Part shown: one piece after another, positions 1,379-58,266 of the stretch
How the letters are laid out: every line of letters starts with the position of its first letter
How positions within the stretch are numbered: position 1 is the first letter of the stretch
DNA from: a virus
Lineage: Duplodnaviria; Caudoviricetes
Virus record (IMG/VR): IMGVR_UViG_3300043447_000415
Span: 8,568-72,567 of that record
DNA length: 64,000 bases
Strand: one strand, 5' to 3'
The notes under the pieces: generated by a model
What the model was told of the DNA's origin: nothing
The model's database searches: none
The model's input: the letters and a program-made list of their open reading frames with translations, nothing else
Position numbers and translations under genes: made by a program

Positions 1379-1420
1379 ATCATAAGGTGCGATCTCAGGA
1401 GAGACAAGTCACGGGTGACT
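1379..1420 (-). promoter_or_regulatory. sigma70 promoter TTGTCT-17-TATGAT with 14-bp operator abutting -35
   Basis: -35 at 1402-1407, -10 at 1379-1384; AGTCAcgggTGACT at 1407-1420. Confidence 0.7.
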
Positions 1421-1439
1421 TTGCCTCTCATGTTCCCAA

Positions 1440-3584
1440 TCACACCATCAGCAGGTGGCGCAGTTCCTTGATGACGACCGCAGGCAGGTCTTCGACCTTC
1501 TGGATCACCAAGCTCTTGGGGTAGAACTTGTTGACGGCGTCCGATTGGATGCCGATGCCCACGACGCGAACGCCAGAGGCCGACACGTCCTTGACGACTC
1601 GCTTGAGGTGCGACTCCAGGTCGCCACGATGGCCAGCGGCAGCGGGGTAGCCGTCCGAGAGCACGAGCATGACCTTGCTTGCCTCGCGTCGAGCGATGAG
1701 GCGGCGCGCGGCAGCTTCGACCGACTCACCGTCCACGTTCGAGCGGAGGATGTTGGTGTTGGGCAGCCAACCGAAGCGCTCCTTCACGTTGACCGTCATG
1801 CGCTCCTCGTAGCCCTTGAGGATGGGCATGTAGATGCCCTCGATGCGCGAGAAGCGGATGCCAGTCTTGCTGGTGGTTTCCTGAAGCTCCTTCATTGCGC
1901 TACTACCGATCTCCTTCGTCGTGAAGCCGATCACCTCATTCTTGATGTTCAGGCGATCGAGCACCGAAGCCAGCGCGTATGCAGCCTGCGCGGCAGTGTG
2001 AATCTTCGATCCGTTCATCGAGCCCGAGCAGTCAACGACCAACTCGACCGCCACGTCCTTGCTGGTGGACTCGTGCTTGCGGCTGAAGACCCGGTCATCG
2101 TTGAAGCGCAGGCGAGACAGGTTCGCGGCGTGCAACTTGCCCGAGCGGTGGCCATGAGAGCGTGTTGCCAGCGATCGTGCGGCGATGGCGCGCTCCAGGT
2201 CTTTCTGAAGGGGTGCGACCATGTGATCGACCTTGTCCATCAGGCTCTTGGTCATCGAGGGGCTGTATGCGCTGCCGATTGGCAGCTTCTCGACCACGTC
2301 GAAGTCCTTCGTGAAGGGCATGTAGTCGGCGTTCTGAGCGGACTTGAGCGCGGTCTCCGACAAGGCTCGAGACATCGACTCGTCGTAGCCATTCTTGCCG
2401 TCCTTGTCGAGTTCGGCCCAGATCGGTGCGGAGTCGCCGAGCTCCTCGCTGTCGTCGCCGTCACTCTCGCCCATCGTGCCTTCGGTCATCGTCGAGGCGG
2501 CGTCGTCAGTCTCAGCCTCCTCGTCGGCTTCCTTGATGTCGGTCTCGTCCTCGTCGTCTTCTTCGGGCTCGTCTTCCGGCTCGGACTCAGACTCAGGTTC
2601 AGACTCCGGCTCGGACTCAGGTTCGGCTTCTGACTTCTCGCCCTCGCCCTCCTCCTTCTCGTCTTCAGGTTCGGGCTTTTCTTCGGTCTTCTTCTCGTCC
2701 TTGCCCTTGCCGCCGGCGCTCTCGTCTTCACCCTTCTCGTCTTCACCCTTCTCGCCAGCGCCTTCACCTGTTTCTTCTTCTTCATCCTTGTCTTCGGGCG
2801 GGGTGGCGGGCGGTGTCTTGCCCTTCGACTTCTCAGGCTTGCCCTTCGACTTGGACTTGCTCGACTTGCCTGAAGCGCTGCTGGTGCCGCCCTCGCCTTC
2901 ACCCTCGTCATCGCTCTTGTCGGGCTTGCCCTTGCCCTTGCTGCCTTCGCTCAGACGCTTGCCGATTTCGATGGCGAGCTTCAGACAGTCTTCGGTCGAG
3001 GCGGCGTCTTCGATCTCAGGCTGCAAGTCTTTGATGCGCTCATACACGACATCCATCTTGGTCCAGTGATCCTTCATGAACTCCTTGAAGATTTGCTGGC
3101 CCGACATGGCGCGAATCATCGGCACCATCAAAGTCTGAATGACGCCATTTGCATCACCAGCGGCGGCTTTTTCTTTCAGTCGCGGCATGACGAACTTGTC
3201 GAGGTAGAACTTGCCTGTGACCGACAGGTTGTAACCAGAGCCTTGAAAGCGCTTTGCCATCTCTTTCTCGATGCGAGGGTCTTCAAGCGCATTGAGCATG
3301 AAGCCGATCTGGCGACCGTGAGCGTTCGCTTTGGCCATCAGCGGAAAGTTGGTGAACAGGATGTGTGCGACCTCGTGGTCGAGGAAGCCTTGAATCGCAT
3401 TGCACAGCTCCTCGGTTGCGTTGTCGGGCAGGTAAGGCAGGTTGACCACGACCGGGGTGCCCAGGTGGTCTGCCTTGACGTATGCGTTCACGCCTTGTTG
3501 CGTGACCTTGATGCCCTTGCCCGAGAGCATCTGGGTGATCTTCACGACTGACTCGCGAAGGATGAAGACTCGATCATTTCTCAT
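1440..3584 (-). CDS. CobT-like vWA protein with N-terminal HEXXH metallopeptidase-like domain and long acidic linker
   Basis: LDHEVAH; NALEDPRIEK; E/D/P-rich linker; MIDAS DCSGSM and VLSDG; next to the AAA+ gene. Confidence 0.88.
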   Translation of the reverse strand: MRNDRVFILRESVVKITQMLSGKGIKVTQQGVNAYVKADHLGTPVVVNLPYLPDNATEELCNAIQGFLDHEVAHILFTNFPLMAKANAHGRQIGFMLNALEDPRIEKEMAKRFQGSGYNLSVTGKFYLDKFVMPRLKEKAAAGDANGVIQTLMVPMIRAMSGQQIFKEFMKDHWTKMDVVYERIKDLQPEIEDAASTEDCLKLAIEIGKRLSEGSKGKGKPDKSDDEGEGEGGTSSASGKSSKSKSKGKPEKSKGKTPPATPPEDKDEEEETGEGAGEKGEDEKGEDESAGGKGKDEKKTEEKPEPEDEKEEGEGEKSEAEPESEPESEPESESEPEDEPEEDDEDETDIKEADEEAETDDAASTMTEGTMGESDGDDSEELGDSAPIWAELDKDGKNGYDESMSRALSETALKSAQNADYMPFTKDFDVVEKLPIGSAYSPSMTKSLMDKVDHMVAPLQKDLERAIAARSLATRSHGHRSGKLHAANLSRLRFNDDRVFSRKHESTSKDVAVELVVDCSGSMNGSKIHTAAQAAYALASVLDRLNIKNEVIGFTTKEIGSSAMKELQETTSKTGIRFSRIEGIYMPILKGYEERMTVNVKERFGWLPNTNILRSNVDGESVEAAARRLIARREASKVMLVLSDGYPAAAGHRGDLESHLKRVVKDVSASGVRVVGIGIQSDAVNKFYPKSLVIQKVEDLPAVVIKELRHLLMV

Positions 3585-3670
3585 TGGTTTCTCCGTATGT
3601 CATGAGTGACTGATAACGCATTGTCACCGTTGAATCTAGGGAGAACAATGCTTTGAGCAGGGAAGATGAA

Positions 3671-3690
3671 AGGGCGACCGAAGTCGCCCT
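3671..3690 (-). terminator. intrinsic terminator
   Basis: AGGGCGAC-cgaa-GTCGCCCT stem followed by TTCATCTT on minus strand. Confidence 0.55.
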
Positions 3691-3695
3691 GGGGT

Positions 3696-3881: not shown

Positions 3882-3899
3882 AAGCGCCGTCCTTATAAA

Positions 3900-4520
3900 T
3901 TATCGCTTTGTGTTTTGTCTATATAGTTTAGTCACCAGTAAGTAAATCCTTCTTGTGGAACTTGACCTCCGTTCGGGCTTTGCCCGCAGCAGGATGTTGC
4001 TCACTCGGGTGAGCATGTAGTGGGCACCCCGATCCTCGACCTTCTGGAAAATCGACCGCACCTCGTCGGCCGAGAGCTCCGTGATGCGCCTGGCGCCGTG
4101 CGTGGCCAGGATGTTGGCTTTGGCGGCGGTGTTGTAGTCGTCGTAGTGCCGCGAGCTCCACTCGTGCCGGTTGTGCTCGAGCCATTCAGTGATGACTTCA
4201 CTCACCGACTTGGCCGCCTTGTTTGCGCCACGGGCCTGGCGCCGTAGCTCCACGGGGTCAGTGCCCAGTTGCACCGCTTCCCTAGCTTGCTCAGCCAGGG
4301 TCCGTGCCGTACTCAGCTTGACCTGCGGGTAGGTGCCCATCGAGAACGTCTTCCGTACCCCGAGCAGGACATAGTCGAGCTGCCAGGACATGCCGCCCGT
4401 GCGCCGGACGACGAGGTAGAGCCCTGAGCCGTCGCTGATCTTGGTGACGGAATTCTCGGACTCGCGAGCCTCCCTGATGCGCTTCTCGAGCTCCTTCTGG
4501 GACAACTCATGCAGTGCCAC
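3900..4520 (-). pseudogene. truncated P4-type tyrosine integrase (arm-binding and core-binding parts only)
   Basis: KISDGSGLYLVV...SWQLDY...GTYPQVKLSTAR...A arm-DNA-binding signature; homology ends near 3985; no catalytic R-H-R-Y domain. Confidence 0.85.
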
Positions 4521-5927: not shown

Positions 5928-6108
5928 TTGGGGGCTCCTTCGGCTCCAGCTTTCGAGTCAGCAACTGCAAGATGTCCGTCATCGTGAACAGCGGAACTTC
6001 CTGGCCGTTGCGATCAACCATCTGGACAAGCCCACCCACTCCCGTTGGGAACACATGGGTGGTCCAGGGAAAGGTGGCTTGAATCTGCTTGAACTGTTCG
6101 TCAGTCAT
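5920..6108 (-). CDS. hypothetical protein (62 aa)
   Basis: Tight packing in operon. Confidence 0.6.
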   Translation of the reverse strand: MTDEQFKQIQATFPWTTHVFPTGVGGLVQMVDRNGQEVPLFTMTDILQLLTRKLEPKEPPSA

Positions 6109-6111
6109 GAC

Positions 6112-7470
6112 TTATGCCTTGTCGTCGCGGAATCGCTTGAAGCGTGGGTGACGCAGAGAGCCGTCAGGGGTGATCTCGTGGAACTCGACTTCAATGACGC
6201 GTCCAATCAGCGCTTCGCGGTCTTCCCAGAAGCTCTGACGTTGGCTGTCGCTGAGACCGCTTCCGACGTTCACGCGCACCGCATCAGGGTGGTCATGGTT
6301 TGCCCCATGTGCTCCGTTCTCGTGGCAAGTCTTGTCGAAGGCGACGATGATCGCGCCCAACATGCCCTCGTACTTGCCGGTGCCCTCCTCGAAGCCCACG
6401 ATCGGCACGTCGGTCGATTCTTCGGCCTTGATCTTCATCCAGGCGTGGTTGCGGCGGCGGTAGTACGGCGCGTCGTCCTTGATGATGAGTCCTTCCAGAC
6501 CTCGTGCCTGCACCGACTCGTAGAGGGCGTCAATTTCGGCTTCGGAGCTCACCAAGTACCGAGGCAGCAGGTGAACGGGGCCCGACTTGCCGGTGGGCAG
6601 CAACTCGTTGAGCACTTGGCGACGTTCGGTGTACGTGTGCTTGCTCGGCACCTTGTCGTCCTTACTGAAGAGCGACATGGGCAGGATGTCGAACACGTTG
6701 AAGATCGCGTCCGTAGCCTGGGCATCCTTGCGTCGAACTTCCGAAACGGTCTTGTTGAAGCTGCCAGAGACGATTTCCCCGTCGAATACCACGGCGAAGT
6801 CTTCGCAGTCCACGCGATCCGAGAAGTACTCGGCATCGTAGTCGTCGCCCAATCCACACAGATCGGCACGGAAGTCGTCGATCAGCCTCAGCAGCGGCCC
6901 CTTCAGGTGGTCAAAGGTCGTGAACTCCTTGCCCGAGCGGGAGAAGAAGTGAACTGAGGGCTTGGTGATGTCCACGAACGCAAGCACCCGCACGCCATCG
7001 AGCTTGGGCTCGGCAACGACTGGCCATTTCTTGACTCGATGCGCCTCGAACTTGTGAGCCAACATACAGTCGAAGGTGGGCACCGTGCCTGGGATGGCCT
7101 TGTTGACGGTGGACTCCGAGAAGCCCGCCCGCAGGTCTTTGCTGACGATGCGCCAGAGCAGTTCGGCCGACTTGGTGGTCAGACGAGTCAGCTCCGATAC
7201 CAGCGACTCGCGAGCCGCATTGCCTGTCAGGGTGCGAGTCTCCAGATTTGTCAGAAGCACCCATGTCTGAGTGTCAAACACGCCATCGAGATTGGTCAGC
7301 ACTTCGGGCCGTTTGGCGATGCCGTAGGTCTTGAAAGGGTTGAGCGCCGCCTCGAGCACCGCAAGAAACTTGCCGTTGGCGCCGTGCTTGGCGACGAGCG
7401 CTTCCTTGCCGGTCTTGCTGGAGGTTGAGGCGATCTCCTCGATCGCGTCGAAGATTGCATCCGAGTTCAC
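6112..7470 (-). CDS. ATP-dependent DNA ligase
   Basis: Motif I EPKLDGVR, VFDGEI, FDIL, EGLIIK, WMKIK, OB-fold SLRHPRF; GTG start at 7470 overlapping upstream TGA. Confidence 0.93.
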   Translation of the reverse strand: MNSDAIFDAIEEIASTSSKTGKEALVAKHGANGKFLAVLEAALNPFKTYGIAKRPEVLTNLDGVFDTQTWVLLTNLETRTLTGNAARESLVSELTRLTTKSAELLWRIVSKDLRAGFSESTVNKAIPGTVPTFDCMLAHKFEAHRVKKWPVVAEPKLDGVRVLAFVDITKPSVHFFSRSGKEFTTFDHLKGPLLRLIDDFRADLCGLGDDYDAEYFSDRVDCEDFAVVFDGEIVSGSFNKTVSEVRRKDAQATDAIFNVFDILPMSLFSKDDKVPSKHTYTERRQVLNELLPTGKSGPVHLLPRYLVSSEAEIDALYESVQARGLEGLIIKDDAPYYRRRNHAWMKIKAEESTDVPIVGFEEGTGKYEGMLGAIIVAFDKTCHENGAHGANHDHPDAVRVNVGSGLSDSQRQSFWEDREALIGRVIEVEFHEITPDGSLRHPRFKRFRDDKA

Positions 7471-8375: not shown

Positions 8376-8483
8376 GGAAACTCCTGTATTGACCCAGAAC
8401 GGGTGTTGCTCAGTGCTGACTGATAGTGTAGTGCGATTTCTTCGGGGTATCGCGCACATTCAGCGATTGCCGGTCAGATGTCC

Positions 8484-12051: not shown

Positions 12052-12825
12052 TTATCGACATTCGTCGATTGCCGCCCGAACTACCCGCTCGTCGAACTCC
12101 CGAAGTGCGGTCTCGATGCGTAGCGTCTGCTCAATATAGAGCGAAGCGTGAAGCGAGTATTGGGGGTGTCGGCGAGTCTTGATCTGAGCGACGAGGTAAG
12201 TCTCCCAATCGAGCTGATCCACATGACCGAAGAAGTTGGCCACCTTATAGCGGGTGTCTTTGGGGAACTGAATGCGAGCGGCGCACTCCTCTTCCCAGGC
12301 CAGCATGACATCGGTGATGAGGTCGGCGTTGGCGCCGATGTGAGAGGGTCTTGGCGCTGCGCGAGCGCCCTTGTCCAGCTTCTTCAGATACCAGCCGTCG
12401 TGGCTGTACCAGCGAAATGCCTGGTTCAGGAAGAAGTCGTAGCGCATACCGAGGCTGTCGGCCAACTGACGCAGTCGCCAGACCGAGAGCCGTTCGCGCG
12501 CCTCCATGATGTTCATCTCCTTGAACGCCCGCATGAAGCGCCCGCTACGGTCGTGTGTTGCCACCATGAACCGCTGATAGGCTCGGTTGAACTCGTGCGC
12601 GAAGAGGTACGTTGCTTTGGTCGGGTGCATCCGACGGTAGTCGAACCACTTGACCCGGTACAGAGCCGCCTCCTTCTTCAGAAGCGCTGTGGGGACGTGC
12701 TGGATGGCCAGGAGCTCCGCATGAAGCAGCCCCAGGTCATGGCCGTAGAAGTAGCCGAACCACTCGGTCAGTTTCGGGGAATCGGGAGGGGTTGGAGCCG
12801 GCATAGAAGGTAAGAGTAAATTCAC
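12052..12825 (-). CDS. hypothetical protein (257 aa) heading the replication block
   Basis: Long ORF, backbone-like codon usage; no motif recognised. Confidence 0.75.
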   Translation of the reverse strand: MNLLLPSMPAPTPPDSPKLTEWFGYFYGHDLGLLHAELLAIQHVPTALLKKEAALYRVKWFDYRRMHPTKATYLFAHEFNRAYQRFMVATHDRSGRFMRAFKEMNIMEARERLSVWRLRQLADSLGMRYDFFLNQAFRWYSHDGWYLKKLDKGARAAPRPSHIGANADLITDVMLAWEEECAARIQFPKDTRYKVANFFGHVDQLDWETYLVAQIKTRRHPQYSLHASLYIEQTLRIETALREFDERVVRAAIDECR

Positions 12826-12884
12826 TCATGAAGTATATTGAATATACGCGGGGCGAAAATTCCCCGCGTATTTCCCCGCACCGA

Positions 12885-13649: not shown

Positions 13650-13716
13650 GTACTACAAACCTTGAAGTTGATCCTGTCGTTACTATACCTCAGTCATCCG
13701 TGACTGACGCGCCGGA

Positions 13717-15429: not shown

Positions 15430-15535
15430 CGCGGACTTTCAAGGTCAATTTCGGATGCCGGATTCTAACCGATGTGAAATCATTCGTGAAGTACTTTCGT
15501 CCTTTGTCGAATTTGCACAAAACCTTATATAAGGT

Positions 15536-15778: not shown

Positions 15779-15828
15779 GAGGTTCTCCGGTTATGTCAAC
15801 AGTGACTTACCCATTATAGCCAACAAGC

Positions 15829-16182
15829 TCAGGGAGCTGCGGGAGTTTCGGGTTCAGGTGCGGGTGCCCAGGGCAGTGGGGCGCTGTCGAGCGCTGCCTC
15901 TTGAACCATCTTGTCGAGCACGGACTGGATGTGCGCTTTGATGCTGGGCATACGCTCGACTTCGGCCGCTTCGATCCAGGCGACAACGACTTCCGGCGTC
16001 AGCGAAGTCAGCGGGATGAAGTCTTCCGCGTCGGGCTCGCCCATCATGGTCTTCTGAGGCAGCTCGAACGACTGGCCGTTCTCGGTGCCCTTCAGAGTCC
16101 ACTCGACGTGCTTGACGACGGACTCCAATTCGCCAACGGTTGTCGTGCGAATGGCCGTGATGGTGATAGTGAATTCAGTCAT
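15829..16182 (-). CDS. tail-fibre-associated protein
   Basis: Immediately downstream of the fibre gene; VKHVEW...LPW type seen after phage fibres. Confidence 0.6.
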   Translation of the reverse strand: MTEFTITITAIRTTTVGELESVVKHVEWTLKGTENGQSFELPQKTMMGEPDAEDFIPLTSLTPEVVVAWIEAAEVERMPSIKAHIQSVLDKMVQEAALDSAPLPWAPAPEPETPAAP

Positions 16183-16185
16183 GAC

Positions 16186-19100
16186 TTATCCTTCAATGAG
16201 TTTGGAAACAAGGGCTTCGAGTTTAGCGACTCGGGCGCGGAGATCGACATTATCTTTTGCCAGTTCAACGGCGGCGGCGAGCGCTGCGTTGCCGTAAGCG
16301 ACAGAAAGCAAATCCTCCTTCTCATGATAGTCCACCGCTTCAGGGAGAACTTTCTGGAGAGATTGTGCGGAAACGCCAACTTGACGTTTGCCGGTGTCGG
16401 TTCGGTCAAAGACGCCCGACTTGACTTGAGCCAATCTGGCAACAAAGTCGTCGGCCAGGTCCGACCAATTGGTCTTCAGCTTCTCATCCGAGTAAGCCGT
16501 GATGTTGCCGGCTGCCCAGATCGAGCCACCGAAGGTGGCGTTGTTGTTCGTCAAGTCCCAGTACACGGGCCAGTAGCCGCCAACTTGAGCCCACGAGGTC
16601 GAGTTGTTTGCACCTCGAAGGATATACATCAGGTTGGAATTGCAGTGCAGCATCGCACTGTTGTTGTCCGTATCCTGGAGATAGATCGTGGGACTTGCGT
16701 TATTCACCGTCACGTTGCCGGTGAGAGATAGGTTGCCGGTCAGAGACCCGCCAGCGAGTGGCAGGTAGCTCGAGAGCGTCGATGACGAGACTGCGTCAGT
16801 GATGCCGTAGCCCGCGACGGTGGTTGGTTTGCCGCTCACGCCACTCCAGGCAACCGAACCTGCACTGCCGGTGACGTTGATGCTCCATGTGCCCGAGGCT
16901 CCACCGCCCGACAGTGTAGGTGCATAGCTGGCGATGTTCTCGCTCGTCATCATGGCGCGCCAGCCTGGCGCGTAACCACTGCCTTGGTCGTTATAGACCA
17001 ATACCTGGAAGCCACCCGCGCCCGTTGTGGGGCGCGTAATGCGGACGTGCTTTTCAGCGCTGTTGATCCACGTTTCGATCACGCAGCCAGCCATATCGAC
17101 TGTGCCGAACCCTGTGTCGGTCAGGTCATTGTTGCCCGCGTAGTCCCAGGCGCACTTGGCAACCGAATGGGCGAAGTTGAACATGCCCAGCGTCGTGAGG
17201 TGGGCGATCAGTTGCGCTGTTGTGCAGTTCGCGTTAGTGCCGTTGGGGTTAATGTAGATTGTGCCAAACGACTTAAAGCCCGAGACCGAGCCCGCGCTGC
17301 CGGTGATGTTGATGCCCCACGTACCTGAAGCACCGGAACCTGTCAGTGACGGCGAGTAGCTGGTGTAGTTGCCTGCGTGGAGGACTACGTTGTTGTTGAC
17401 GTATGAAGCTGATGGTGTAACCGCAAAGTTAACGCCCGTCGCAGAAGTTGATCCGTTTACGGAAACACCAAATGTATCTGCGCCACCAATACCAGCACCA
17501 CCTTGAAAGTAGCTGATGCCGTATGTAGTTGCGTTTCCAAACGACCAGATTGGGTTGCGTACCCCACCGTAGTAGACGTCGTTGCGAAAGCCGTTGTTCC
17601 CGCCCGATGTCACTGCACCAATAAACGAGCTGTAGCTGGTGTAGTTGCCGCTGTGCAGGTACGGAAGGTTGCCGCTGTACCGATACAACTGGCCGTCTAC
17701 CAATACATCTTTATTGAAGTAGAACGAAGGTCGGTCCGTTTGAAAGTGGCTGTGCGACGTGTTCAGGGGGCCGATAGTCACATAACCATTTGCGTTCACA
17801 AACGACGCATAGTTGTTGCCGTCAAGGTGCAGGCCGTATGCGGTGTTGTCTCTGCTAAATCGAGCAATCCCGCCAAACGCGTCGATGTGCGCCGTGCCGT
17901 TCGTGTTTTGGCCGACCTGAAGCTGTGTGTTGATACGAACGCTGCTGGAGCTAAGAGCAAGCAATGTTGCCGGGGTGACCCCACTTGCGTTTCCAACACG
18001 AATGCGAAGACCGTCAAAGACGTTCATCTTCATGCCGTCCCAACCACCCTCGCCGTCGATGTTGTTGTAGTTGTTGTAGATCGAGTGGTTAGCGTCGTTG
18101 TAAGTCGAGCTGAATGACAAGCGCTGTCGGCTGACGTTCAATGCACCTGTAACCGTGCCACCACTCAAAGGCAAGGCGTAGGAGCTGTAGTTACCATCAT
18201 GAAGCAGCGTGTACCAAGCATTCCAGGTGCTGTCGATACCGTTGCGAATGCTTAGCTTTGGTTGACCAGATGCGTTAACCCCGCTCCCGTTTGCAAACGC
18301 AAGTTGATACGACGAGTCGCCGGTACTTGCGCTGGTGCCAGTCCAAGGGCTAAACGTCATCACGCCTGCGTAGTTGCCAGAGCCGTTGCCGACACCAGCA
18401 CCCACAAAATCAAAGTTTACTGTTCGCGTGAAGCTGTTTGGAAGGCGATCAGAGAGGTTGCGTGGGCCGTCTTCAAAGCCAATCCTGCGTGCCGATCCAG
18501 TAACGCTAATTCCCCAGATACCAGAAGCACCTGAGCCACCTAACGAGGGGCTGTAGCTTGTGTAGTTGCCAGCGTGCAGGACTTGATTCCCAGCTTGCTG
18601 GATTGCTCCTTCGACGTTCAGGCCGTTTGTCGGGTTGCTGGTCGCAGCGTACCCAGAACCAATTGTCATGCCGCCGTTTACATGCAGCTTCTTGCCAGAT
18701 ACCGCTGAACCGCCGCCGCCAATGGCAAACGTACTCGTCGAGCCGTTAAACCATGTGTAGTCGGTGCCCGCCACGTCAGTCCAGCTAATCCCAGCCCATG
18801 AGGTGCCACCCCCGTTAAGGATGATCTGGGTATCGCTGGCATTTGAGAACGTAGTAACGCCAGTAACCGTACCGCCGCTCAGCGGAAGCGCATACGAGCT
18901 GTAGTTACCTGCGTGGAGCGCTTGGTTTCCACCAATCTGAAGCGTACCGGAGTCAAAGTACGTTGCAGCACCACGGATGTAGTTCACATAGCTACTGCCG
19001 TTGTAGTAGCCAAAATGTGTTTTGTTATCCCCTTGCCCGGTAGCGTAAGCGTGCGTACTAAAAATTGACACACCGGAGCTGATTCTTGACGAAGGTGTGG

Positions 19101-19965: not shown

Positions 19966-20038
19966 GTGACTCCCCTTCTGACCTATCTAGGTCGGGTTTA
20001 AAGCCCCCTATGTAGGGGGCGGTTTATTCATTCGTGAC

Positions 20039-22114
20039 TTAGAAGGTTCCGCCGTCGATGGTGATTCCGTCAAACGTGGCGAGGTTGATGATCGAACCGC
20101 CTGTGATGGCCACAGCACCTGCGTTCTGGGTGGACATCGTGCCCAGGCCGGTGATGTCGGTGTTGGGGATGGTTGCGGACGCCGTCATGGCGGCAGTGCC
20201 AGCACCCTTCACGTAGCCAGTCAGAGTCGTGGCACCTGTACCGCCGTTGCCGACAGACAGAGCCGTACCAGACCAGTTCGAGTTGTTGATCGAGGACAGG
20301 ACGGCCAGCGAGCCCAGGCCCAGGGTCGAGCGTGCGGCGGTGGCATCAGCGTCATCGACCAGTGTGCGGCCGAAGGCGGTAAAGGTCGCGAGTGCAGCGG
20401 TGCCGGAGCCTGTGAAGTAAGGCAGGCGGTCAGCAGCGCTGACCAGACCAGCCAGAGCCGTCAGTTCAGCATCCAGACCTTGAGCGTCGGTGATGCCGTA
20501 GCCAGCCAATGTGGTTGGGTTCGTACCTGCACTCACACGACCGTAGGCGTCAACGGTGACGCTGCGGTAGGTGCCCGCAGTACCGATTGTCGCGAGGTCG
20601 ATGTTGTCGGCGTTGACGACGATTCGAGCACTCGAGGCGGTACCGATGTCGATGCTGTTGCCCGACTTGGTCAGGCCCATACCAGCGCTGATCTGGCCAG
20701 CGCCAGAGAATTGCTGGAAGGTGATCGCAGTGGTGTTCAGCGTGCCACCGGGTTCCACAGTGCACACAAAGCCCATGTCGGCGTTGACCGTACCGGACTC
20801 GGCGAAGACGTAAGCGCCAGGCAGCTCGAGCCAGGTGTCAGCATCCAGCGAGCGGGTCCAGGCGCCAGCGGCGACGACGTAGATACCGTTCTGCGAAGCG
20901 GTTGTCTGATCCTTGACCAGCACACGGTCGCCGGCGACGAGCGCGATGCCGTCGATGGTCATCGTGCCGGAGAGGGTTGCAATGTTGGCGGTGGTTGCGG
21001 CGCGGACGGACTGCTTGGGGTCGAGACCCTGCACTGTCATGTCCACGTAGTTCTTGGTCGCTGCGTCCTGTGCGTTCACAGGGTCGGCGAGGTTGGTGAT
21101 CTTGCGGCTGTTCAGCGACACGTCGGCCGTCGGCACAGCCATCTGGTCAAGACGGTTGGTGCGGACTTGAGTGTCGAAGTCGCTGATCTTGGCGGCGGTC
21201 AGCGTCGGGATGTCAGTCGCAGACAGTGTTGTGCCGGCGGTGGCGCGACCTTTCGCGTCAACGGTGAGCTTCGTGTAGGTGCCAGCGGTCACGCCGCTTG
21301 CTGCCAGAGTCAGCGCTGTCGAGGAGCCTGTTGTGCCGGTGCCGGTCGCGTCGCCCGTGAAGGTCAGCGAACTGGAGATCGAAGATGTCGAGACGGCCGT
21401 TACGCGACCTTTGGCATCAACCGTGATGACAGGCACAGCGGTGGCCGAGCCGTAGCTCCCGGCAGTAACGCCCGAAGCGGCCAGTGTCAGAGCTCCGGTT
21501 GCGTTTGCCGAGCCGTCGAAGTTGATCGTCCAGGTGGCGTCGCCAGTCGCAGAGATCGAGCGAGATGTTGCCAGCGTTGTTGCCGTCGAGGCGTTACCGC
21601 TCAGAGCGGCAGTGATGGTGCCGGCCGCGAAGTTGCCAGAGGCGTCGCGAGCGACAACTTTGGATGCGGTGTTGACGCTCGTCGCATCTACCGCGAACGT
21701 CACTCCACCAGAGCCGTTGAACGTGCCGCCAGTCAGGAAAGCTCCTGCCGTCAGCGCGTTGGTCGTGTTCGCAGTGATCGTGATGTTGCCGGAACCGTTG
21801 AACGACACGCCGTTGATCGTGCGTGCAGTCTCCAGAATCGTTGCCGTGCCTGCGTTGCCGCTGATGGAGCCACTGATTGTCTGGAGGAAGGTCTTGACGC
21901 CGTCGATGGTTTGCGAGCCTGTCAGCGCTGCGAAAGCGCCGCTACCTGCAATGGGAATGACAGAGGTTGCACTGCCGCCCGCTCCACCCGTGCCCGAGCC
22001 GTAGTAGAGCGTGAGGTCTTGTTCGTTGAATGCGAGTTCGGCGTTCTGGAGCGAGGCGGGTGCGCCTGCTGCTCCACCGGCTGCGCGGCGTTTGATGCGT
22101 ACTGTATTTGCCAT
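20039..22114 (-). CDS. tail fibre / virion structural protein
   Basis: IKRR...AELAFNE N-terminus; DAATKNYVD; Gly/Thr/Ala-rich modules shared with the other fibres. Confidence 0.78.
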
Positions 22115-22747: not shown

Positions 22748-22790
22748 ATTCTAAGGCCGAAAAGCCGAGAATGTCAAGTCAGTCATGACT
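22748..22790 (-). promoter_or_regulatory. sigma70 promoter TTGACA-18-TAGAAT with operator abutting -35
   Basis: -35 at 22772-22777, -10 at 22748-22753; AGTCAgtcaTGACT at 22777-22790. Confidence 0.72.
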
Positions 22791-23978: not shown

Positions 23979-24077
23979 AGACGTTTGCTCATTAGTGACT
24001 TATGGTTTGTGAGTTAGTGATATTTCTGCAAATACCACACCTTATTGCCAAGAATCAGTTTTCAATATGTCCTTGGA

Positions 24078-28175: not shown

Positions 28176-28204
28176 ATATTATGTCACGAATGACTTTTGG
28201 TCAA
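28176..28204 (-). promoter_or_regulatory. sigma70 promoter TTGACC-17-TAATAT with operator in spacer
   Basis: -35 at 28199-28204, -10 at 28176-28181; TGTCAcgaaTGACT at 28182-28195. Confidence 0.72.
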
Positions 28205-36248: not shown

Positions 36249-36263
36249 TTGTTCACCTGTGAC

Positions 36264-39200
36264 TTATCGATACAGCAGGCCGCCAGGGCGCTGCTGCGTA
36301 ACCATTTCTTCCATCACCACGCCACGCACCTTGCTGGCCACCCGCTTCCAGGTCTCGGCATCATCACCTTGGCCAGAAGAGGTCTCGCTTCCATCCTTGT
36401 TGACGACGATGTTGATGACCACGCCGCCTTGGTTGGTGGTCGTGTTGTTGCTGCCTGTCATCGTGACGGGGATGCTGCGGCCGTCAGGCAGTGGCACGTA
36501 GGCTTCGTTCATGGAGCCTTCACCGAAGAGCGCGAGCTGCGGGCTTGTAGCGATGCCGCCCTTGGCGTACTTGTTCAGTGGCATGGAGCCCATAGCGGAC
36601 ATGACGCCACCTTTGGCAAAGCCGAACAGGCTCATGCCCAGTTTGAGCAGGTCGCCCATTCCACCGCCGCCACCGCCGCCACCGCCGAACAAGCCCATGA
36701 TGCCGTCGAGCATACCGGACAGACCGCCCTTGAGGCTGTCGAAGAGGCCACCCATGGAGCCCTTGAGCGTGTCCCAGACAGTCGAGAAGTTTTCCTTCAC
36801 CGAGTCCCAGACGCTGCTCAGCTTTTCCTTTACGGCCGTGAACATCTCTTCTTCCGGGTTCTTCAACTTTCCGGACGTGGCGTTGATGACGTGATATGGA
36901 GCGTTTGCGGAGCCGTCGGCTTTGCCGGAAGCTCCAGCGCTTCCCAGGCCCAGCATGCCGCTCATCATGTTGGCGAAGCCGCCGGTCACGCTCGTCACCG
37001 CATCGCCCAGTACGTTGCGAATCAGGATGGTGTTCACATCCTTCAACGCACCGATCACCAAGTCCTTGAACTTGCCAACCTTCTCACCGTTCATCGCCTT
37101 GGTAATGTAGTCCATTGTCTGCTGCGCCCAGTTGGCCGAAGCCTGGTTCATCGCATCGACGGAGTTGCGCCAGCTATCGGCGAGCTTGTCGAGCGCCGAC
37201 TTGGCGTTCTGCATGTAGCGCAACCATGCCTCGGAGCGGTACTGCGAGCCGGCATCCTCAAGATGGTTCAGTTCGCTCTGGTAAGCCGCGAAGCTTATGT
37301 GACCCGCCTGGAAGCGATCCTCGAGCGCCCACAGCTTCGCGTCTTCGTTGAGGGTGAACTCGCGCAGCTCTTCCTGGTAGGTGGCCACGGCCACCTGCTT
37401 GTAGTCCATCGTCGAGCGCATCCGAGCGATCTTCGAGCGCTCCACACCCTTGACCGTGTCCTCAACGAACTTCTTGTTCTCCTCGCGCATCTCGAACATC
37501 GAGCGCAGGTTGCGAGTCTCTGTTGCGTTGGCTACGGCCTTGTTGCGCTGCGCCTCGATGCGCTGGTATTCGTCGCTGGTCTTGTCCAGTTTCTTGAGCA
37601 GCTCGTCGTACTTGGCGATGACGGAATTGAGCGCCTTGCTTTCCTTCGAGATACCGTTCGTTGCCGTCTCTTCACGAGCGGCGTCCAGGTCGCGCAGTGA
37701 GTCGGCGAGCAGGTTGTTCGAGGTTTCCTGAGCTTTGTTGGCGTCCTTGTAGCGTTGCTCCGTGGTCAGGTTGTTGATGATGTCCAGAACTTGCTTGCTC
37801 TGCGTCTCGGTCAACTTCAAGCCTGCGATGAAGTCATCGACGGACTTCTTGCCGTTGACGACTTCCTTCATGAACTCCGCAACGAAGCCTTTGCGTTTGT
37901 CGATGTTGCCAAAGCGCACCGGCACCTTCTCTTTGCCTTCGGCGTCCATCTCCTTGGTGTCGAACTTGCCCTCGGCGATGTCACCCAGCACGCCAACGGC
38001 GATCTGGTTCTTGATGTCGCCGATCTCTTTCGAGCCGATCAGAGCCTGCTTGTAGGCGATCAGCGCTTCAGCGGCGGCCGCTTTGGCACGCTCGGCTTCA
38101 CGCAGGATCGGGTCTTCCTTCAGGTTGGGTTTGTCGTCCTTGCGAGTGGTGGGCACGCGGCCCAGCGACTGCTCGGCCTGCTTGATGGCGCTGCTCGTCT
38201 CTTCGATCTTGTCGTTGATGAACTTCAACTGCCCTTCAAGCGCCTTGCGTTTGGAGGGATCGGTTTCCGTCTTGAGAATGCCTGCAACCTCAAGCTGGCG
38301 CTCTCGTGCGTAGTCGAGCAGATAGCGTTCGCGAGCGATCACCAAGGCGTTTTTCTTGGCGGTGTATCGCTTGCTGATGGCGTCTTCTTCGGATTCAGTC
38401 AGCTTCTTGCCGCTCGCGGCAGCGGCGCTGCGAGCCTTGTCCAGCTCGGTGCGTTCCGCCTTTGAAAGCTCTGCCGCTTCACTGCGCAAGGCGTCAACCT
38501 TGCCCTCTGTGGCGCGACGGTATGTACGCTCGAACTGAGAAACTGATCGTCCGACAGTTTCCTCATCCAGCAGTCGCGTCTGTTCGGCAGATTGTTTGGT
38601 GGCTTGCTCGTATACGGCGTTGCGCTCAGCCAATTGCTTTTCGAGCGATGCTCGGTAAGCCGCCACATCAGCACCGCCCCGCGAATCACGGAAACCGGCG
38701 CCCAGCGCACGACTGATCGAACGAGCGGACGTGTCACCGTCCTTGTCCAGGTCGTTCAGAACCGTCTTGAGAGTCTTGATGGCTTTAGCCGCCTCGTTGG
38801 CCCGATCCGTGGCTTTGGCCAGGTCGTCCTTTGATGCAACGCCCGCCTCGGTGCGCTTGACAACCTCCTGGAACTCCTTCCAGCGGTTCATGTACTCCCA
38901 GAGCTTCTGGCCGAGCGTGACGAGCACGCCGATCGCGATACCCACCCAACCTCCGAAGGCATTGAAGAGCACGCCGGCGCCAGACATGGCTCGAGACAGG
39001 ATACCCACCCCGGTCGCTGCGTTGGTCGCGGCCGTAGCTTGCTGACCCAGCAGACTGGCCATCATGCGAGCGTGTTGCGCCGCCAGCGCTGCGGACTCTG
39101 CCTGGCGATTGTTGGCAGTTGTGGCGTTGCGAGTTGTCTGAATCGATTGCAAGAGCGCGGCGTCGCGCGCCTTAATTGCGGCGATCTCAGCCTGAACTGC

Positions 39201-41422: not shown

Positions 41423-41457
41423 CAATTCTATCCGATTTCAGTCAGTTGTGAAAGAGC

Positions 41458-42330: not shown

Positions 42331-42426
42331 TGGAAGCTCCTTTGCAAAGGGTTTTTGAAGTCACTACTGAGTGACTTCGCCGGTGCCCGGACTCTACCAC
42401 AAGTGGGTGTAAAAGTCCAGCATTTC

Positions 42427-45945: not shown

Positions 45946-45974
45946 ATTCTACGTCAGTTGTGACTGACTCGCAA
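45946..45974 (-). promoter_or_regulatory. sigma70 promoter TTGCGA-17-TAGAAT with operator in spacer
   Basis: -35 at 45969-45974, -10 at 45946-45951; CGTCAgttgTGACT at 45952-45965. Confidence 0.62.
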
Positions 45975-46947: not shown

Positions 46948-47007
46948 AGTCACCGATGAGGCAGGACTATACCACACTTTGTGGCAAATTGCAAGTCATC
47001 GGTGACT
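46948..47007 (-). promoter_or_regulatory. capsid promoter TTGCAA-17-TATAGT bracketed by two operators
   Basis: -35 at 46989-46994, -10 at 46966-46971; operators 46994-47007 and 46948-46961. Confidence 0.78.
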
Positions 47008-49616: not shown

Positions 49617-49645
49617 ATCTTATACGTCACGAATGACTTAGTCAA
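49617..49645 (-). promoter_or_regulatory. portal promoter TTGACT-17-TAAGAT with operator in spacer
   Basis: -35 at 49640-49645, -10 at 49617-49622; CGTCAcgaaTGACT at 49625-49638. Confidence 0.72.
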
Positions 49646-51617: not shown

Positions 51618-51659
51618 AATGTAGCGCGAAAGCAACAATTTGTCAAGTCATTCATGACT
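51618..51659 (-). promoter_or_regulatory. terminase promoter TTGACA-17-TACATT with operator abutting -35
   Basis: -35 at 51641-51646, -10 at 51618-51623; AGTCAttcaTGACT at 51646-51659. Confidence 0.8.
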
Positions 51660-52044: not shown

Positions 52045-52113
52045 TCAGTCACTCTTTACTTATATTTAATATACGGTAGAGAGAATTTCCCCGATTCGGG
52101 GAATTTCCTCGAC

Positions 52114-54714: not shown

Positions 54715-55079
54715 TCGTCGTCTTTCGCGTTTTCGCGCTTCATGGCGCGCAGGTTCTTGTTGAACCAGCTCACAACCTTCGGGTTGCTCATCCACATCTC
54801 CACCAGGCCGTTCGTGACCTGTGTGGTGATGTGCTCTTCTTCGGCGCCGTCTTTAACGCCGTACACCCAGTTGATGGCGTGAATCAGCTCGTGCTGGACG
54901 ACGTTCACCGCCCGCTGGCGATGCAAGGTGTCGTCGAGGTAGATGCGGAAGGTCTCGAAGTCCGTGATGCCGTCGCAGCCCTCGAGGATCGGGCTCTCGG
55001 CGGGCGTCGAGACGCTCAACCGGAACGTGTACTGTCCGATCTTGACGCGACGTGGAAGACCGCTGAATACGTCATTCAT
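54711..55079 (-). CDS. HEXXH-motif protein
   Basis: CDG.TD...VVQHELIHA...EE. Confidence 0.7.
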   Translation of the reverse strand: MNDVFSGLPRRVKIGQYTFRLSVSTPAESPILEGCDGITDFETFRIYLDDTLHRQRAVNVVQHELIHAINWVYGVKDGAEEEHITTQVTNGLVEMWMSNPKVVSWFNKNLRAMKRENAKDDE

Positions 55080-55732
55080 GACTTAGCCTCGGCGGTGGTC
55101 ATGACGCCCTTGATGAAGCGCACGAACGCTTCCGCCCCGGTAACACCCATCTCTTCCTCGATTTGGGCCATGAAGCGGGCAACGTGACGCTCGTCTGCGC
55201 CTGGGATCGCTTTGAAGCCGAGCGCTTTGTCGATCTTGACCTCTCGCGCATCCACTTCGGCGACCTTCTGAACACTTTCGTCCGCCTGCTTGGCTACCTC
55301 GACCTCGATGTCGTCCACGAACGCATCGGTGTTGAAGTCGCCCAGGTCGGCTTCCATGAACTCGAGTTCCTTCTTGTCGAAGATGCCTTCCAGGTCGAAG
55401 TCCAGGTCGGCGAGCTCCTTCTGGAGAATGGCGCTGTCGATGTCGGACAGGGCCACGCGGTTGTCCGCCAGGCGGTAGGCACGCTGCGCGGCTTCCGACA
55501 GGTTGTCGATCACCTTGATCGGCACGTCCTTCAGACCGAGCTTCAGAGCGGCCAGACGGCGACCGTGGCCAGCCAGGATCACGCCCTTGTCGTTCACGAC
55601 GATCGGGTTGCCGACCCAGCCGAACTCTTCGATCGACTTGGCGATCTTGTCCACCTGCTTGTCGTTGTGAATCTTGGCGTTCTGTTCGTACGGAACGATG
55701 GTGTCGATCGTCCAGGTTTTCTTGTTTGTCAT
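55076..55732 (-). CDS. ParB/Srx N-terminal domain protein
   Basis: PYEQNAKIH, SIEEFGW..PIVV, ILAGHGRRLAA, YRLADN. Confidence 0.88.
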   Translation of the reverse strand: MTNKKTWTIDTIVPYEQNAKIHNDKQVDKIAKSIEEFGWVGNPIVVNDKGVILAGHGRRLAALKLGLKDVPIKVIDNLSEAAQRAYRLADNRVALSDIDSAILQKELADLDFDLEGIFDKKELEFMEADLGDFNTDAFVDDIEVEVAKQADESVQKVAEVDAREVKIDKALGFKAIPGADERHVARFMAQIEEEMGVTGAEAFVRFIKGVMTTAEAKS

Positions 55733-55923: not shown

Positions 55924-55927
55924 GGTG

Positions 55928-56578
55928 TCAGTCTTTCTTTGTGAGCAAGTGAACAAGGGCGTTGCCAGCATTAGAAAGTGAGTCTTCATCCGTGTACCGC
56001 TGCTCTTTCATTGTCCTCTCGACCAAGTCAGTGATGACTGATACATCATCAACAGGAACCTTGAATCGCATGATTTGGTGGGTTTGTGCAGGTTTCGGGG
56101 CTGCACTCTTGGGAAGTTCTTCATCGTCTGGTAGATCAAGATCGTCCAGCGATATATTGACACTTGAGAAAATTGAAGCGAAGTCGCTTTCGGAAAATGG
56201 CATGAAACTGGCAAGCTCTTCTGCACCTACTCCGATGTCGTCCAGCAGTTCAGCCAGTTGAAGCGTGTCGTCAGCGCCATACCGACCGTTGTCCACCAGA
56301 CTGATCTCTTTGGCCTTCTTGTCGGTGATGCGGCCCAGGTTGACCACGGGCACTTCGGCGATCTTGAGCGCTTGAGCGGCTTCCCAGCGGTGCTGGCCGC
56401 CGATGATCTCGAGCGTGCCGTTGATTTCGCGCACGACGATCGGCTTGAACATCCCGAAGCGCTTGATGGACTCTTCGAGCTTGTGCTGGTTTTCGGGAGA
56501 CACCACATTGGTGTTCCACGGGTTTGGAGAAAGCCGCTCGGGCGGGAGGGTTTCAACCTTGATCTTGTTGGTGTTCAC
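55928..56578 (-). CDS. second ParB/Srx N-terminal domain protein
   Basis: PNPWNTN, ESIKRFG...PIVVR, IIGGQHRWEAA. Confidence 0.88.
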   Translation of the reverse strand: MNTNKIKVETLPPERLSPNPWNTNVVSPENQHKLEESIKRFGMFKPIVVREINGTLEIIGGQHRWEAAQALKIAEVPVVNLGRITDKKAKEISLVDNGRYGADDTLQLAELLDDIGVGAEELASFMPFSESDFASIFSSVNISLDDLDLPDDEELPKSAAPKPAQTHQIMRFKVPVDDVSVITDLVERTMKEQRYTDEDSLSNAGNALVHLLTKKD

Positions 56579-56591
56579 GGCAATGTTTCTA

Positions 56592-56636
56592 AGTCACTGG
56601 TGACGGGACTATAATCCTTATATAAGAACTTGGCAA
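56592..56636 (-). promoter_or_regulatory. divergent promoter region: TTGCCA-17-TATAGT on minus strand, TATAAT on plus strand, operator at 56592-56605
   Basis: -35 at 56631-56636, -10 at 56608-56613; plus-strand TATAAT at 56610-56615; CTTATATAAG palindrome at 56617-56626. Confidence 0.72.
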
Positions 56637-56641
56637 GCCAC

Positions 56642-58195
56642 ATGACAATAAATTCTTCAGAAGTTGCGACAATCGCCCACAACGCAGTTGTCGCAAAACT
56701 GCACGAACCCTCTCGCTCACTGAAACTTCGTGTGCAGTCGCTGCTGTCCTACAAAGTTGAAGCTGCCGAACATTCAGCATCCTTCAAGATGGGCAACTGG
56801 GACGGTCGGAGCTCGTTCTTCGACTTTCGTACCGGCAGCTTTCCGGCTGGGTTCGTGAGCTTCGTGGCGGGCAACCTGACTCGCGAGGGCTACCGGATCA
56901 ACCGGGTTCGCAAGCCGCTGCCACTGCCGCTCGGGCCCGAGAAGCCCAAGGTGGACGCTTTCCCCGAAGACCCGCGCTACGACTACCAGATGGACACGGT
57001 CAACCGGCTTCTGAAGCACGGCACGATGATCGCCCAGATCGCCACGGGCGGCGGCAAGTCACGAATCGCTCGCCTGGCCTTCATGCGGATCAACCGCCCC
57101 ACTCTTTTTCTGACGACTCGCGGCATTCTGATGTACCAGATGAAGGAGACGTTCGAGAAAGACCTCGGCGTGCCCTGCTCGGTGCTTGGAGATGGCCAAT
57201 TCGGTCACACCGACAAGGATGGCCGCCAGTTCATCAAGAAGATGTCGGTCGGCATGGTGCAAACGCTGGTGTCGCGCCTTCAGGAGGCCAATCCTGACGA
57301 TCCGGTGGACGTTCAGAACCGTCAGACCGCCATTCGCAACCAGACGATCGCCCTGCTGGGCAAGTTCGAGTTCGTGATCGGCGAAGAAGCTCACGAGGCG
57401 TCCGGCAACAGCTACTACGAGATTTTGCGCCACTGCAAGAACGCCCACTACCGCCTGGCGCTCACCGCCACGCCCTTCATGAAGGACAACGAAGAGTCGA
57501 ACATGCGCCTGATGGCCGCGTTCGGCTCGATCGGCATCAAGGTGTCCGAGAAGCTGCTGATCGAGCGCGGCATCTTGGCCAAGCCGATCTTCAAGATCGT
57601 GACACTCAAGGACAAGCCGAAGAACCTGATGCGGGGCACCCCCTGGCAGGGCGCCTACCGCCTGGGCATCGTCAACAACGACGAGCGCAACCGCCTGGTG
57701 GTGGCCGAGTCCGCTCGCGCGGCACGCCACGGTCTGTCTACGATGGTTCTCATCCAGCAGAAAGCACACGGTCATGCCTTGCTCGAGCTGATGGCACAAG
57801 CGGGCATTCGCGCTGAGTTCATCTACGGTGAGAACGACCAAGCCGAGCGCAAGAAAGCGCTTCAGAAGCTCGCCATCAACGAGGTGCAGGTGCTGATCGG
57901 TTCGACCATCCTGGACGTGGGCGTTGACGTTCCAGCGGTCGGTCTGGTGATCCTGGCGGGCGGGGGCAAAGCCGAGGTTGCGCTGCGCCAGCGAATCGGC
58001 CGTGGTTTGCGAGCCAAGAAGTCAGGCCCGAACGTCGCGCTGATCGTGGACTTCTACGACGAGCACAACCGCTACCTGAAGGAGCACAGCCTTCAGCGCA
58101 TCTCCATCATCAAGGGCACCGAGGGTTTCGGCGAGAACATCCTGCCCGACGGAGAAGATTTCGACTACGCCAAGCTGGGGCTCGCAAAAAAGTGA
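56642..58195 (+). CDS. SF2 DNA helicase (UvsW/DExH-like)
   Basis: ATGGGKS, EEAH, TATP, DVGVDVP, QRIGRGLR; ATG 56642 preferred. Confidence 0.9.
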   Translation: MTINSSEVATIAHNAVVAKLHEPSRSLKLRVQSLLSYKVEAAEHSASFKMGNWDGRSSFFDFRTGSFPAGFVSFVAGNLTREGYRINRVRKPLPLPLGPEKPKVDAFPEDPRYDYQMDTVNRLLKHGTMIAQIATGGGKSRIARLAFMRINRPTLFLTTRGILMYQMKETFEKDLGVPCSVLGDGQFGHTDKDGRQFIKKMSVGMVQTLVSRLQEANPDDPVDVQNRQTAIRNQTIALLGKFEFVIGEEAHEASGNSYYEILRHCKNAHYRLALTATPFMKDNEESNMRLMAAFGSIGIKVSEKLLIERGILAKPIFKIVTLKDKPKNLMRGTPWQGAYRLGIVNNDERNRLVVAESARAARHGLSTMVLIQQKAHGHALLELMAQAGIRAEFIYGENDQAERKKALQKLAINEVQVLIGSTILDVGVDVPAVGLVILAGGGKAEVALRQRIGRGLRAKKSGPNVALIVDFYDEHNRYLKEHSLQRISIIKGTEGFGENILPDGEDFDYAKLGLAKK

Positions 58196-58266
58196 CCGCC
58201 ATGTAACTCAGTCGTGACAAAAGGCATGCTTTTCAGGTAAAGTGCTACAAACCACGAAAGGCCGCC

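Follow-up and report, generated by a model that had tools for sequence, protein, structure and literature searches.

This study concerns a network of short palindromes in a 64,000-nucleotide stretch of viral DNA (the window), corresponding to bases 8568-72567 of a linear 72,567-bp IMG/VR viral contig, which is designated G000 in the comparisons below. The palindromes, 18 bp long and scattered over gene junctions and sigma70-type promoters, are considered with a probability of about 0.55 to be the operators of one phage-encoded dimeric helix-turn-helix (HTH) regulator, most likely an XRE-family protein of the 434 Cro/cI type that is encoded by the relatives of this phage and whose gene appears to have been deleted here. 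The assignment to a single regulator is drawn from the fixed registers of the sites within the polymerase footprint, from the conserved half-sites flanking four variable bases, and from the presence of the motif, with its variants, throughout the family. As judged from its sequence, the contig is a fragment of a siphovirus of the SSU5/B1VFA type with a full genome of ≈ 107 kb. Its completeness is 68% (CheckV), and comparison with G001, the closest relative and a complete genome of 107,050 bp that is collinear with the contig at 75–93% nucleotide identity, indicates that ≈ 35 kb of the phage genome is missing.

The palindrome and its distribution in the window

The preliminary description of this DNA had reported a 14-bp palindrome, AGTCA-N4-TGACT, at more than 20 intergenic positions and far in excess of chance. 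This excess was reproduced: the pattern TCA-N4-TGACT gave 34 strand matches (27 places) in the window against 2.2 expected from shuffled sequences (shuffle maximum 6), AGTCA-N4-TGACT with at most one mismatch was found 21 times against 1.65 expected, and an 18-bp position weight matrix (PWM) detected, at a threshold of 13 bits, 30 sites in the window compared with 0.87 in Markov resamples. Perfect 14-mers number six (1407, 13692, 22777, 46994, 51646, and 56026). All 23 of the main positions reported earlier hold a recognisable copy. The copies at 3622 and at 7764, the latter listed earlier as degenerate, are very weak, and that at 58206 is moderate. The 14-bp core recurs as described, but it is only part of the true consensus, which, when the copies are aligned on the coding strand, extends to the 18-bp palindrome T-A/C-AGTCA-YNRN-TGACT-T-A (in short form, TAAGTCA-N4-TGACTTA); the identical 18-bp consensus was obtained from 390 non-redundant sites of relatives. 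Similarly, the statement that all copies are intergenic holds for those listed at the time, but about nine intragenic copies had been missed (585, 4184, 27881, 34594, 42222, 56026, 59038, and others). The PWM scan places 21 of the 30 sites in non-coding DNA, which makes up 7.7% of the window (binomial p = 3e-17). The individual sites, given as positions in the window, are as follows.

585..598: inside the CobS-like gene, 19.0 bits; weaker in G001
1407..1420: perfect palindrome, centre at -41.5 of TTGTCT-17-TATGAT, upstream of the cobS-sigma operon
3598..3611: 20.6 bits, 12 bp before the start of the CobT-like gene; identical in G001
3930..3943: degenerate; orthologue of the operator adjoining the G001 XRE gene, now next to the deletion junction
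4184 and 42222: intragenic copies
6099..6112: stop/start junction, at the ligase stop with the ATG of the next gene within the spacer; no promoter found
8408..8421: intergenic, 13.9 bits
12033..12046: intergenic, followed by TATACT
12820..12833: degenerate, intergenic
13692..13705: perfect palindrome in the spacer register, upstream of phoH
15478..15491: degenerate, intergenic
15794..15807: directly downstream of a TATAAT box
16173..16186: stop/start junction upstream of a 117-aa gene
20026..20039: at a tail-fibre gene stop, with a terminator-like hairpin after it
22777..22790: perfect palindrome, centre at -42.5 of TTGACA-18-TAGAAT
23987..24000: intergenic, upstream of the lysis genes
27881..27894: inside a tail-fibre gene; not kept in G001
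28182..28195: spacer, centre at -19.5 of TTGACC-17-TAATAT
34594..34607: inside a tail gene, adjoining TATAAT; kept in G001
36251..36264: at the stop of the tape-measure gene
41440..41453: intergenic, overlapping TTCACA-16-TAGAAT
42359..42372: intergenic, upstream of the Ig-domain/major tail gene
45952..45965: spacer, centre at -19.5 of TTGCGA-17-TAGAAT
46948..46961: centre at +5.5 of TTGCAA-17-TATAGT, the promoter of the major capsid gene
46994..47007: perfect palindrome, centre at -41.5 of that same promoter (major capsid)
49625..49638: spacer, centre at -21.5 of TTGACT-17-TAAGAT, the portal promoter
51646..51659: perfect palindrome, centre at -41.5 of TTGACA-17-TACATT, the terS/packaging promoter
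52047..52060: degenerate, between the winged HTH gene and a 130-aa gene
55070..55083: stop/start junction that follows the first ParB-like gene
56026..56039: perfect palindrome within the second ParB-like gene; same sequence in G001
56592..56605: at +3.5 of TTGCCA-17-TATAGT in the divergent ParB-like/helicase region
58206..58219: moderate, downstream of the helicase gene
59038..59051: inside a plus-strand gene; not kept in G001

Registers relative to sigma70-type promoters

The three promoter registers proposed earlier were borne out both in the window and in the relatives. Relative to sigma70-like promoters of the window, the site centres lie at -41.5/-42.5 (1407, 22777, 46994, and 51646), in the spacer at -19.5/-21.5 (28182, 45952, and 49625), and at the start site (46948 at +5.5 and 56592 at +3.5). 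When 388 non-redundant sites of relatives were examined with a promoter defined by at least 10 of 12 hexamer matches, 100 of them were found on such a promoter, and their centres clustered at -41.5 (37 within 1 bp), at -19.5 (15 sites; 21 from -21.5 to -17.5), and from +2.5 to +5.5 (22 sites). Viewed from the side of the promoters, 11 of the 16 intergenic sigma70-like promoters of the window carry a site inside the polymerase footprint, and the five site-less ones all fall in an AT-rich stretch at 60.9-61.1 kb. This stretch (window 60900-61100) is a convergent intergenic region of 46% GC and holds the only strong sigma70-like promoters without an operator.

The sites centred at -41.5 overlap the -35 hexamer by 2-3 bp, and they do so at near-consensus -35 boxes, which together favours occlusion of the promoter over its activation. 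The copies at gene junctions that lack a promoter (6099, 16173, 20026, 36251, and 55070) could, by analogy with the stoperators of mycobacteriophage L5, act as roadblocks.

Conservation of the motif and its lineage variants

A portal-protein search gathered 80 related viral contigs. In most of them, over a range of 41-68% GC and down to ≈ 52% portal identity, AGTCA-N4-TGACT is the top palindrome of the 5-N-5 type. The complete genomes G002–G006 contain 19-35 perfect copies each against 0-11 for a reversed-pattern control, and a regular-expression search found 47 matches across the entire G001 genome. The form of the motif differs between lineages: AGTCAY-N2-RTGACT is found in G000, G001, G002, and G011, AGTCAG-N2-CTGACT in G005 and G006, and AGTAAG-N2-CTTACT in G010; in G009 the motif is asymmetric, and 39 copies of AAGTAA-N4-TTACTT, compared with 3 of the control, are present in B1VFA, a cultured Rhizobium phage. 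Between orthologous sites of G000 and G001 the half-sites are kept and the central four bases differ, with the flanks 73-94% identical.

No such palindrome was found in Pseudomonas phage nickie or in the related phage L041, and the motif is also lacking in L046. A different repeat, TTGCAAGCGTTTA, occurs ≈ 7 times in the right-end intergenic regions of nickie (L121-L126) and is apparently another promoter or operator element. The 18-mer was also seen on contigs of 99-114 kb from Bradyrhizobium sp. NAS80.1, Faunimonas pinastri (109,453 bp), Brucella daejeonensis, and Aureimonas sp. (L218, L281, L296, and L271), which hints at episomal relatives in Hyphomicrobiales. The papers searched on SSU5, B1VFA, and RHEph10 did not describe the motif, and the B1VFA genome paper reports no repeat motif (PMC12509600).

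The XRE-family candidate

A six-frame search with the Pfam HTH_3 model found no XRE-type gene in the 72.6-kb contig and one such gene each in G001, G002, G006, and B1VFA. A profile built from these sequences matched G003, G004, G005, G008, G009, G011, and the Rhizobium phage RHEph10, so that the family is present in every complete motif-bearing genome tested. One in-frame TAA stop interrupts the match in G008. Nothing was found with the profile in nickie or SSU5, and a 750-bp unannotated gap before cobT of SSU5, where a hidden XRE gene was looked for, holds no credible open reading frame. When the phyletic distribution of every G001 protein was screened by tblastn, the XRE gene and a sigma-factor gene were the only ones to track the motif. 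The XRE gene has a conserved position adjoining cobT-cobS. In G001 (85114-85557), it lies on the strand opposite to its neighbours and is followed by an AlpA/excisionase gene and a gene for a 429-aa tyrosine integrase, with which it makes up a lysogeny module; in B1VFA, it adjoins repC. A weak to moderate site is located 80-260 bp upstream of most XRE genes. The genome G003 (L133 and L137) has two paralogues of the family, at 16574-16963 and 57474-57803, the second with the divergent helix PPNLLSMILAG.

At the level of sequence, the match of the G001 protein to HTH_3 (PF01381) amounts to 20.1 bits, under the 23-bit cut-off, and the B1VFA and G009 proteins reach 24-25 bits; a search against the PHROG transcriptional-regulator families gave a match of 3e-8. 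The predicted structure (predicted local distance difference test score, pLDDT, 83.6) consists of an N-terminal five-helix domain and a helical C-terminal domain. The model of the N-terminal domain superposes on 434 Cro (root-mean-square deviation 1.7 Å, template modelling (TM) score 0.78-0.80) and on P22 c2 (TM score 0.82), the deviations ranging over 1.7-1.8 Å, and the Foldseek E-values for these fold matches are only ≈ 1e-2.

Three residues located in the recognition helix or close to it, Q34, N47, and K53, do not vary among the 38-75 homologues compared, and the outer TAAGT of the operator is likewise invariant. The variable residues go with the inner bases: ITM with AGTCAY, ISM with AGTCAG/A (C occupies position 6 in ≈ 7% of half-sites), and NMITMLK-GHVKLA with AGTAA. 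Such residue–base covariation is suggestive, and only suggestive, of binding by the XRE protein. A simple correspondence of one residue with one base (K to N before the recognition helix) was ruled out by the pair L182 and L207.

The other gene that tracks the motif, of which the 5' part lies at one end of the window, and the earlier repressor candidate are located as follows.

1..135, minus strand: sigma-70-family gene, 5' part (whole gene at contig 8031-8702, L005:8031-8702:-), just downstream of cobS
52114-52434, minus strand: winged HTH protein (phrog_900), the earlier candidate, now disfavoured

The sigma-70-family protein has 223 aa (Sigma70_r2, 3.8e-7). It has homologues in G001, G002, G006, G009, and B1VFA, where it is annotated as a sigma factor, and none in SSU5 or nickie.

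The preliminary description had named as possible repressors the winged HTH protein and the protein encoded at 58615-58890. Neither could be upheld as the specific binder, the former being the product of a core gene that motif-less nickie has too, and the latter occurring only in close relatives. Two ParB-like proteins of the contig are likewise disfavoured as analogues of KorB: they are present in motif-less nickie, L041, and L046, and in Pfam searches they matched ParB_N at 52 bits and, below the cut-off, at 24 bits and matched no HTH domain.

Deletion of the XRE region in this genome

The alignment of the contig with G001 stops at ≈ G001 85,005 in the region upstream of the XRE gene, with the operator corresponding to window 3930 still included, and resumes at 86,577 inside int. 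The resulting features of the window are as follows.

3955..3985: deletion junction, at which ≈ 1.57 kb present in G001 (≈ 85,005-86,577), with the XRE gene, xis, and the 3' half of int, has been lost
3900..4520, minus strand: truncated tyrosine integrase of 206 aa, of which ≈ 178 aa are homologous to the N-terminal part of the 429-aa integrase of G001, the catalytic half being lost

This junction was not found in other viral contigs. Sites are retained between G000 and G001 at 25/28 and 25/29 in the two directions, with equal mean scores. Because the XRE gene appears to be deleted, the operator network of this genome is probably orphaned rather than silencing, and the phage is probably an obligately lytic derivative that lacks a repressor and would remain open to silencing by a related lysogen.

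Proposed mechanism and its alternatives

We infer that the XRE dimer of the relatives, encoded next to cobT and beside integrase/excisionase or RepC genes, would read the 18-bp sites, where these overlap the -35 box (centre -41.5), fill the spacer (≈ -20), or cover the start site (+3 to +5). Since each such site lies inside the RNA polymerase footprint of a sigma70 promoter, the bound dimer would prevent transcription from starting at nearly all promoters of the replication, lysis, tail, head, and packaging genes; the promoter-less copies at gene junctions would serve as roadblocks, and blocking and roadblocks together would keep the phage silent as a lysogen or plasmid. The dispersed global repression suggested in the preliminary description is thereby retained in kind, given the registers, the conserved half-sites, and the family-wide motif, but with a different candidate repressor.

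A number of observations weigh against this mechanism. The covariation of XRE residues with operator bases follows phylogeny and is thus confounded, and L182 and L207 have the identical recognition helix NPNMITMLKQG and different motif classes. In SSU5, the most intergenic-enriched 7-mers are ATAAGTA/TAAGTAA, which lie within palindromes of variable spacing, and this phage-plasmid has neither an HTH_3 protein nor any protein of the XRE family considered here; should the half-sites of the whole supergroup share a common origin, they could be bound by some protein of wider conservation. Nickie, the sole complete relative without the motif, is also without the sigma-factor gene, and with one loss lineage and a sigma gene of the same pattern the phyletic test does not single out the XRE gene. 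The undecayed sites of the XRE-less contig fit a recent deletion and fit a still-encoded binder equally well. Furthermore, as the contig is only 68% complete, the repressor gene may have been relocated to outside the sequenced part, and the promoters with -41.5 sites could be activated instead of repressed.

Part of this evidence agrees with a scheme in which a different phage protein, still encoded here, binds the sites for temporal control of the lytic cycle (early shut-off, for example, or an early-to-late switch with the phage sigma factor), the XRE gene being an unrelated lysogeny gene. We regard this scheme as unlikely. It accords with the absence of site decay in the XRE-less genome and with the TAAGTA-type palindromes of SSU5 in the absence of any XRE gene, and candidates are at hand in the winged HTH protein by terS, in one of the two ParB-like proteins acting in the manner of KorB, the ParB-family global repressor of RK2, or in an unrecognised small protein. 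The winged HTH gene and the two ParB-like genes are conserved across the supergroup, and the sigma-factor gene shares the phyletic pattern of the motif. However, this same conservation extends the winged HTH and both ParB-like proteins to nickie, L041, and L046, all devoid of the palindrome, and the ParB-like proteins have no Pfam DNA-binding domain except ParB_N. The sigma factor itself is implausible as the reader of an 18-bp palindrome that occupies three registers on sigma70-type promoters. It is also conceivable, although we hold it to be rather unlikely, that a second core protein of the supergroup reads TAAGT, perhaps together with the phage sigma factor, and times lytic transcription, with XRE as a later, competing add-on. 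The TAAGT half-site is indeed common to Salmonella SSU5, Rhizobium B1VFA, and the environmental clade of the contig, and the operators that remain intact in a repressor-less genome would then not be mere relics; if true, this would amount to an ancient, family-wide, two-reader code on nearly every promoter of a ≈ 100-kb phage.

The remaining explanations assign the palindromes other functions. Class II-type activation is known for lambda cI at PRM and for FNR/CRP at -41.5, and a dual regulator might activate from the -41.5 copies and repress from the spacer and +1 copies, switching between gene sets. Four of the five intergenic perfect palindromes lie at -41.5/-42.5, the 5-N4-5 layout is that of FNR-type boxes, and the major-capsid promoter carries both a -41.5 and a +5.5 site; such a regulator is still improbable, as the overlap of the 18-bp site with 2-3 bp of the -35 hexamer favours occlusion and the near-consensus -35 boxes (TTGACA, TTGCAA) of the -41.5 promoters need no activator. 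A host transcription factor or nucleoid protein exploited by the phage family would be compatible with the persistence of sites in a contig without the phage repressor gene and with the conservation of the motif over the range of GC content given above, but it is very improbable: phage lineages of similar GC differ in C or A at half-site position 4 and Y or G at position 6, the related phages nickie and L041 have no sites, the 18-mer, when searched for in bacterial genomes, was mostly matched once per contig, which is chance level, and we know of no bacterial regulator with this consensus. Finally, the 7-bp stem and 4-nt loop could be an RNA element at gene junctions concerned with processing, stability, or translational coupling. 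The copies at 6099, 16173, and 55070 fall precisely on stop/start junctions and have the ATG in the region of the loop, conservation on the coding strand is slightly better in the upstream arm, and both arms change together in the lineage variants; at the same time, the sequence of the stem is conserved and not its pairing alone, many copies stand upstream of predicted start sites at -41.5 and -20, and fixed registers relative to -35/-10 boxes have no rationale at the RNA level, so that this explanation is hardly probable at all.

Gene content of the contig and its relatives

The minus strand carries nearly all genes across window 1 to 56,578. PHROG and Pfam matches indicate a siphovirus with a lambda-like tail tip and assign the following genes.

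28201-33927: J-like tail tip gene
36264-40694: tape measure gene
45981-46892: major head protein gene
47984-49606: portal gene
49649-50893: large terminase gene
55076-55732 and 55928-56578: two ParB-like genes
Further genes of the window: terS-like packaging gene, CobS/CobT-like genes, ATP-dependent ligase, primase, DnaB, PhoH, lysis genes, and helicase

The portal protein is 52-56% identical to those of the Salmonella phage-plasmid SSU5, SSU5-like elements of Klebsiella and E. coli, nickie, and the Rhizobium phages RHEph10 and B1VFA. Core genes of the SSU5 supergroup (portal, capsid, terminase, cobS/cobT, and DNA polymerase III alpha) are common to the contig and its relatives; these genes, together with a full genome size in the range of ≈ 100-120 kb, as in the collinear G001, place the contig in the supergroup. 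A megablast search with 20 kb against a phage collection gave no match, and no tRNA genes were found. The relatives are phage-plasmid-like, and B1VFA encodes parA, parB, repC, and a regulator-like protein (PMC12509600). The only plasmid-maintenance features seen in the contig are the ParB-like genes and repeats resembling iterons; in G001, an integrase is present instead.

The iteron-like repeats belong to a gene-poor stretch at window 62100-63800, which is dense in CCTAGGAG (13 copies), CTTATATAAG palindromes, and ≈ 21-bp iterons resembling GGAGTACGGCTAGGGCGAAGT, and from which the operator palindromes are absent. A role as origin, partition site, or terminal-repeat region is conceivable for this stretch. 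A conserved operon upstream of terS (52437-56578), which belongs to the core of the entire supergroup, nickie and SSU5 included, encodes two proteins with a ParB-N domain and two soluble ATPases of the ABC type, along with a thioredoxin-like protein and a small membrane protein resembling a holin. Just outside the window, the contig encodes a 1149-aa DNA polymerase III alpha with PHP, NTPase, and finger domains (L005:3653-7102:-), to the C-terminus of which a domain of the uracil-DNA-glycosylase superfamily (residues 1001-1100) is fused.

Significance and comparison with known systems

The SSU5/B1VFA supergroup comprises widespread phage-plasmids of ≈ 100-120 kb; in enterobacteria, resistance or virulence cargo is found on some of them. 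No account of how these elements are silenced was found in the literature searched. The present analysis defines a family-wide operator code, consisting of an 18-bp palindrome, three promoter registers, and lineage-specific variants, and names a concrete candidate for the repressor. A natural variant with the repressor gene deleted makes immunity groups, the control of lysogeny, and the origin of virulent derivatives directly testable; if the assignment is confirmed, the operator variants would predict which phages of the group are homo-immune and which are hetero-immune.

In phage P1, the single repressor C1 acts at many operators scattered over a temperate element of ≈ 100 kb and controls replication and lytic functions. 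Its operators are asymmetric 17-mers bound by a non-XRE protein, and the late genes of P1 are controlled indirectly via Lpa. The likeness lies in the dispersed operators of a single repressor on a ≈ 100-kb element; unlike in P1, a symmetric 18-bp palindrome is placed here directly on structural and packaging promoters, and the candidate binder is predicted to have a 434-type HTH. The analogy with P1 is apt because the relatives of the contig are themselves phage-plasmid-like (PMC12509600).

The repressor gp71 of L5 has ≈ 24 stoperators across the genome, mostly intergenic, of which some act as roadblocks away from promoters, and the lytic phage D29 has lost ≈ 3.6 kb including part of the repressor gene with its stoperators still well conserved (PMC5712189). 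D29 is therefore the closest precedent for the contig, in which a 1.6-kb deletion is likewise accompanied by intact sites. The stoperators of L5 and D29, however, are asymmetric 13-mers with strict orientation, whereas the sites described here are palindromes in fixed promoter registers; the two systems also have repressors of unrelated families and belong to different hosts and phage lineages.

With the lambdoid phages 434, P22, and lambda, the candidate shares, as far as the structural model indicates, the fold of the DNA-binding domain of 434 Cro and P22 c2, and the operator, with its conserved outer bases and free centre, is built like the 14-18-bp lambdoid operators. Lambdoid phages have six operators in two clusters, in contrast to the 30-55 sites distributed genome-wide here. 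The ParB-family global repressor KorB of RK2 acts at dispersed palindromic OB operators, one class of which lies just upstream of -35. Dispersed palindromic operators, some of them upstream of -35, are common to both systems, and the contig encodes two ParB-like proteins, but no HTH domain was detected in these proteins, which are also found in motif-less relatives. SSU5 has the half-site word TAAGTA/TAAGTCA in common with the contig, but its spacing is different and more variable, and it has no XRE-family member.

By analogy, the network would work like those of P1 C1 and L5 gp71, with an operator palindrome and a candidate repressor of the lambdoid (434/P22) type. Systems of this kind are known; what is new is the set of family-wide variants, the three registers found on hundreds of sites, the syntenic XRE candidate, and the deletion of its gene from this genome, for which D29 offers the nearest parallel.

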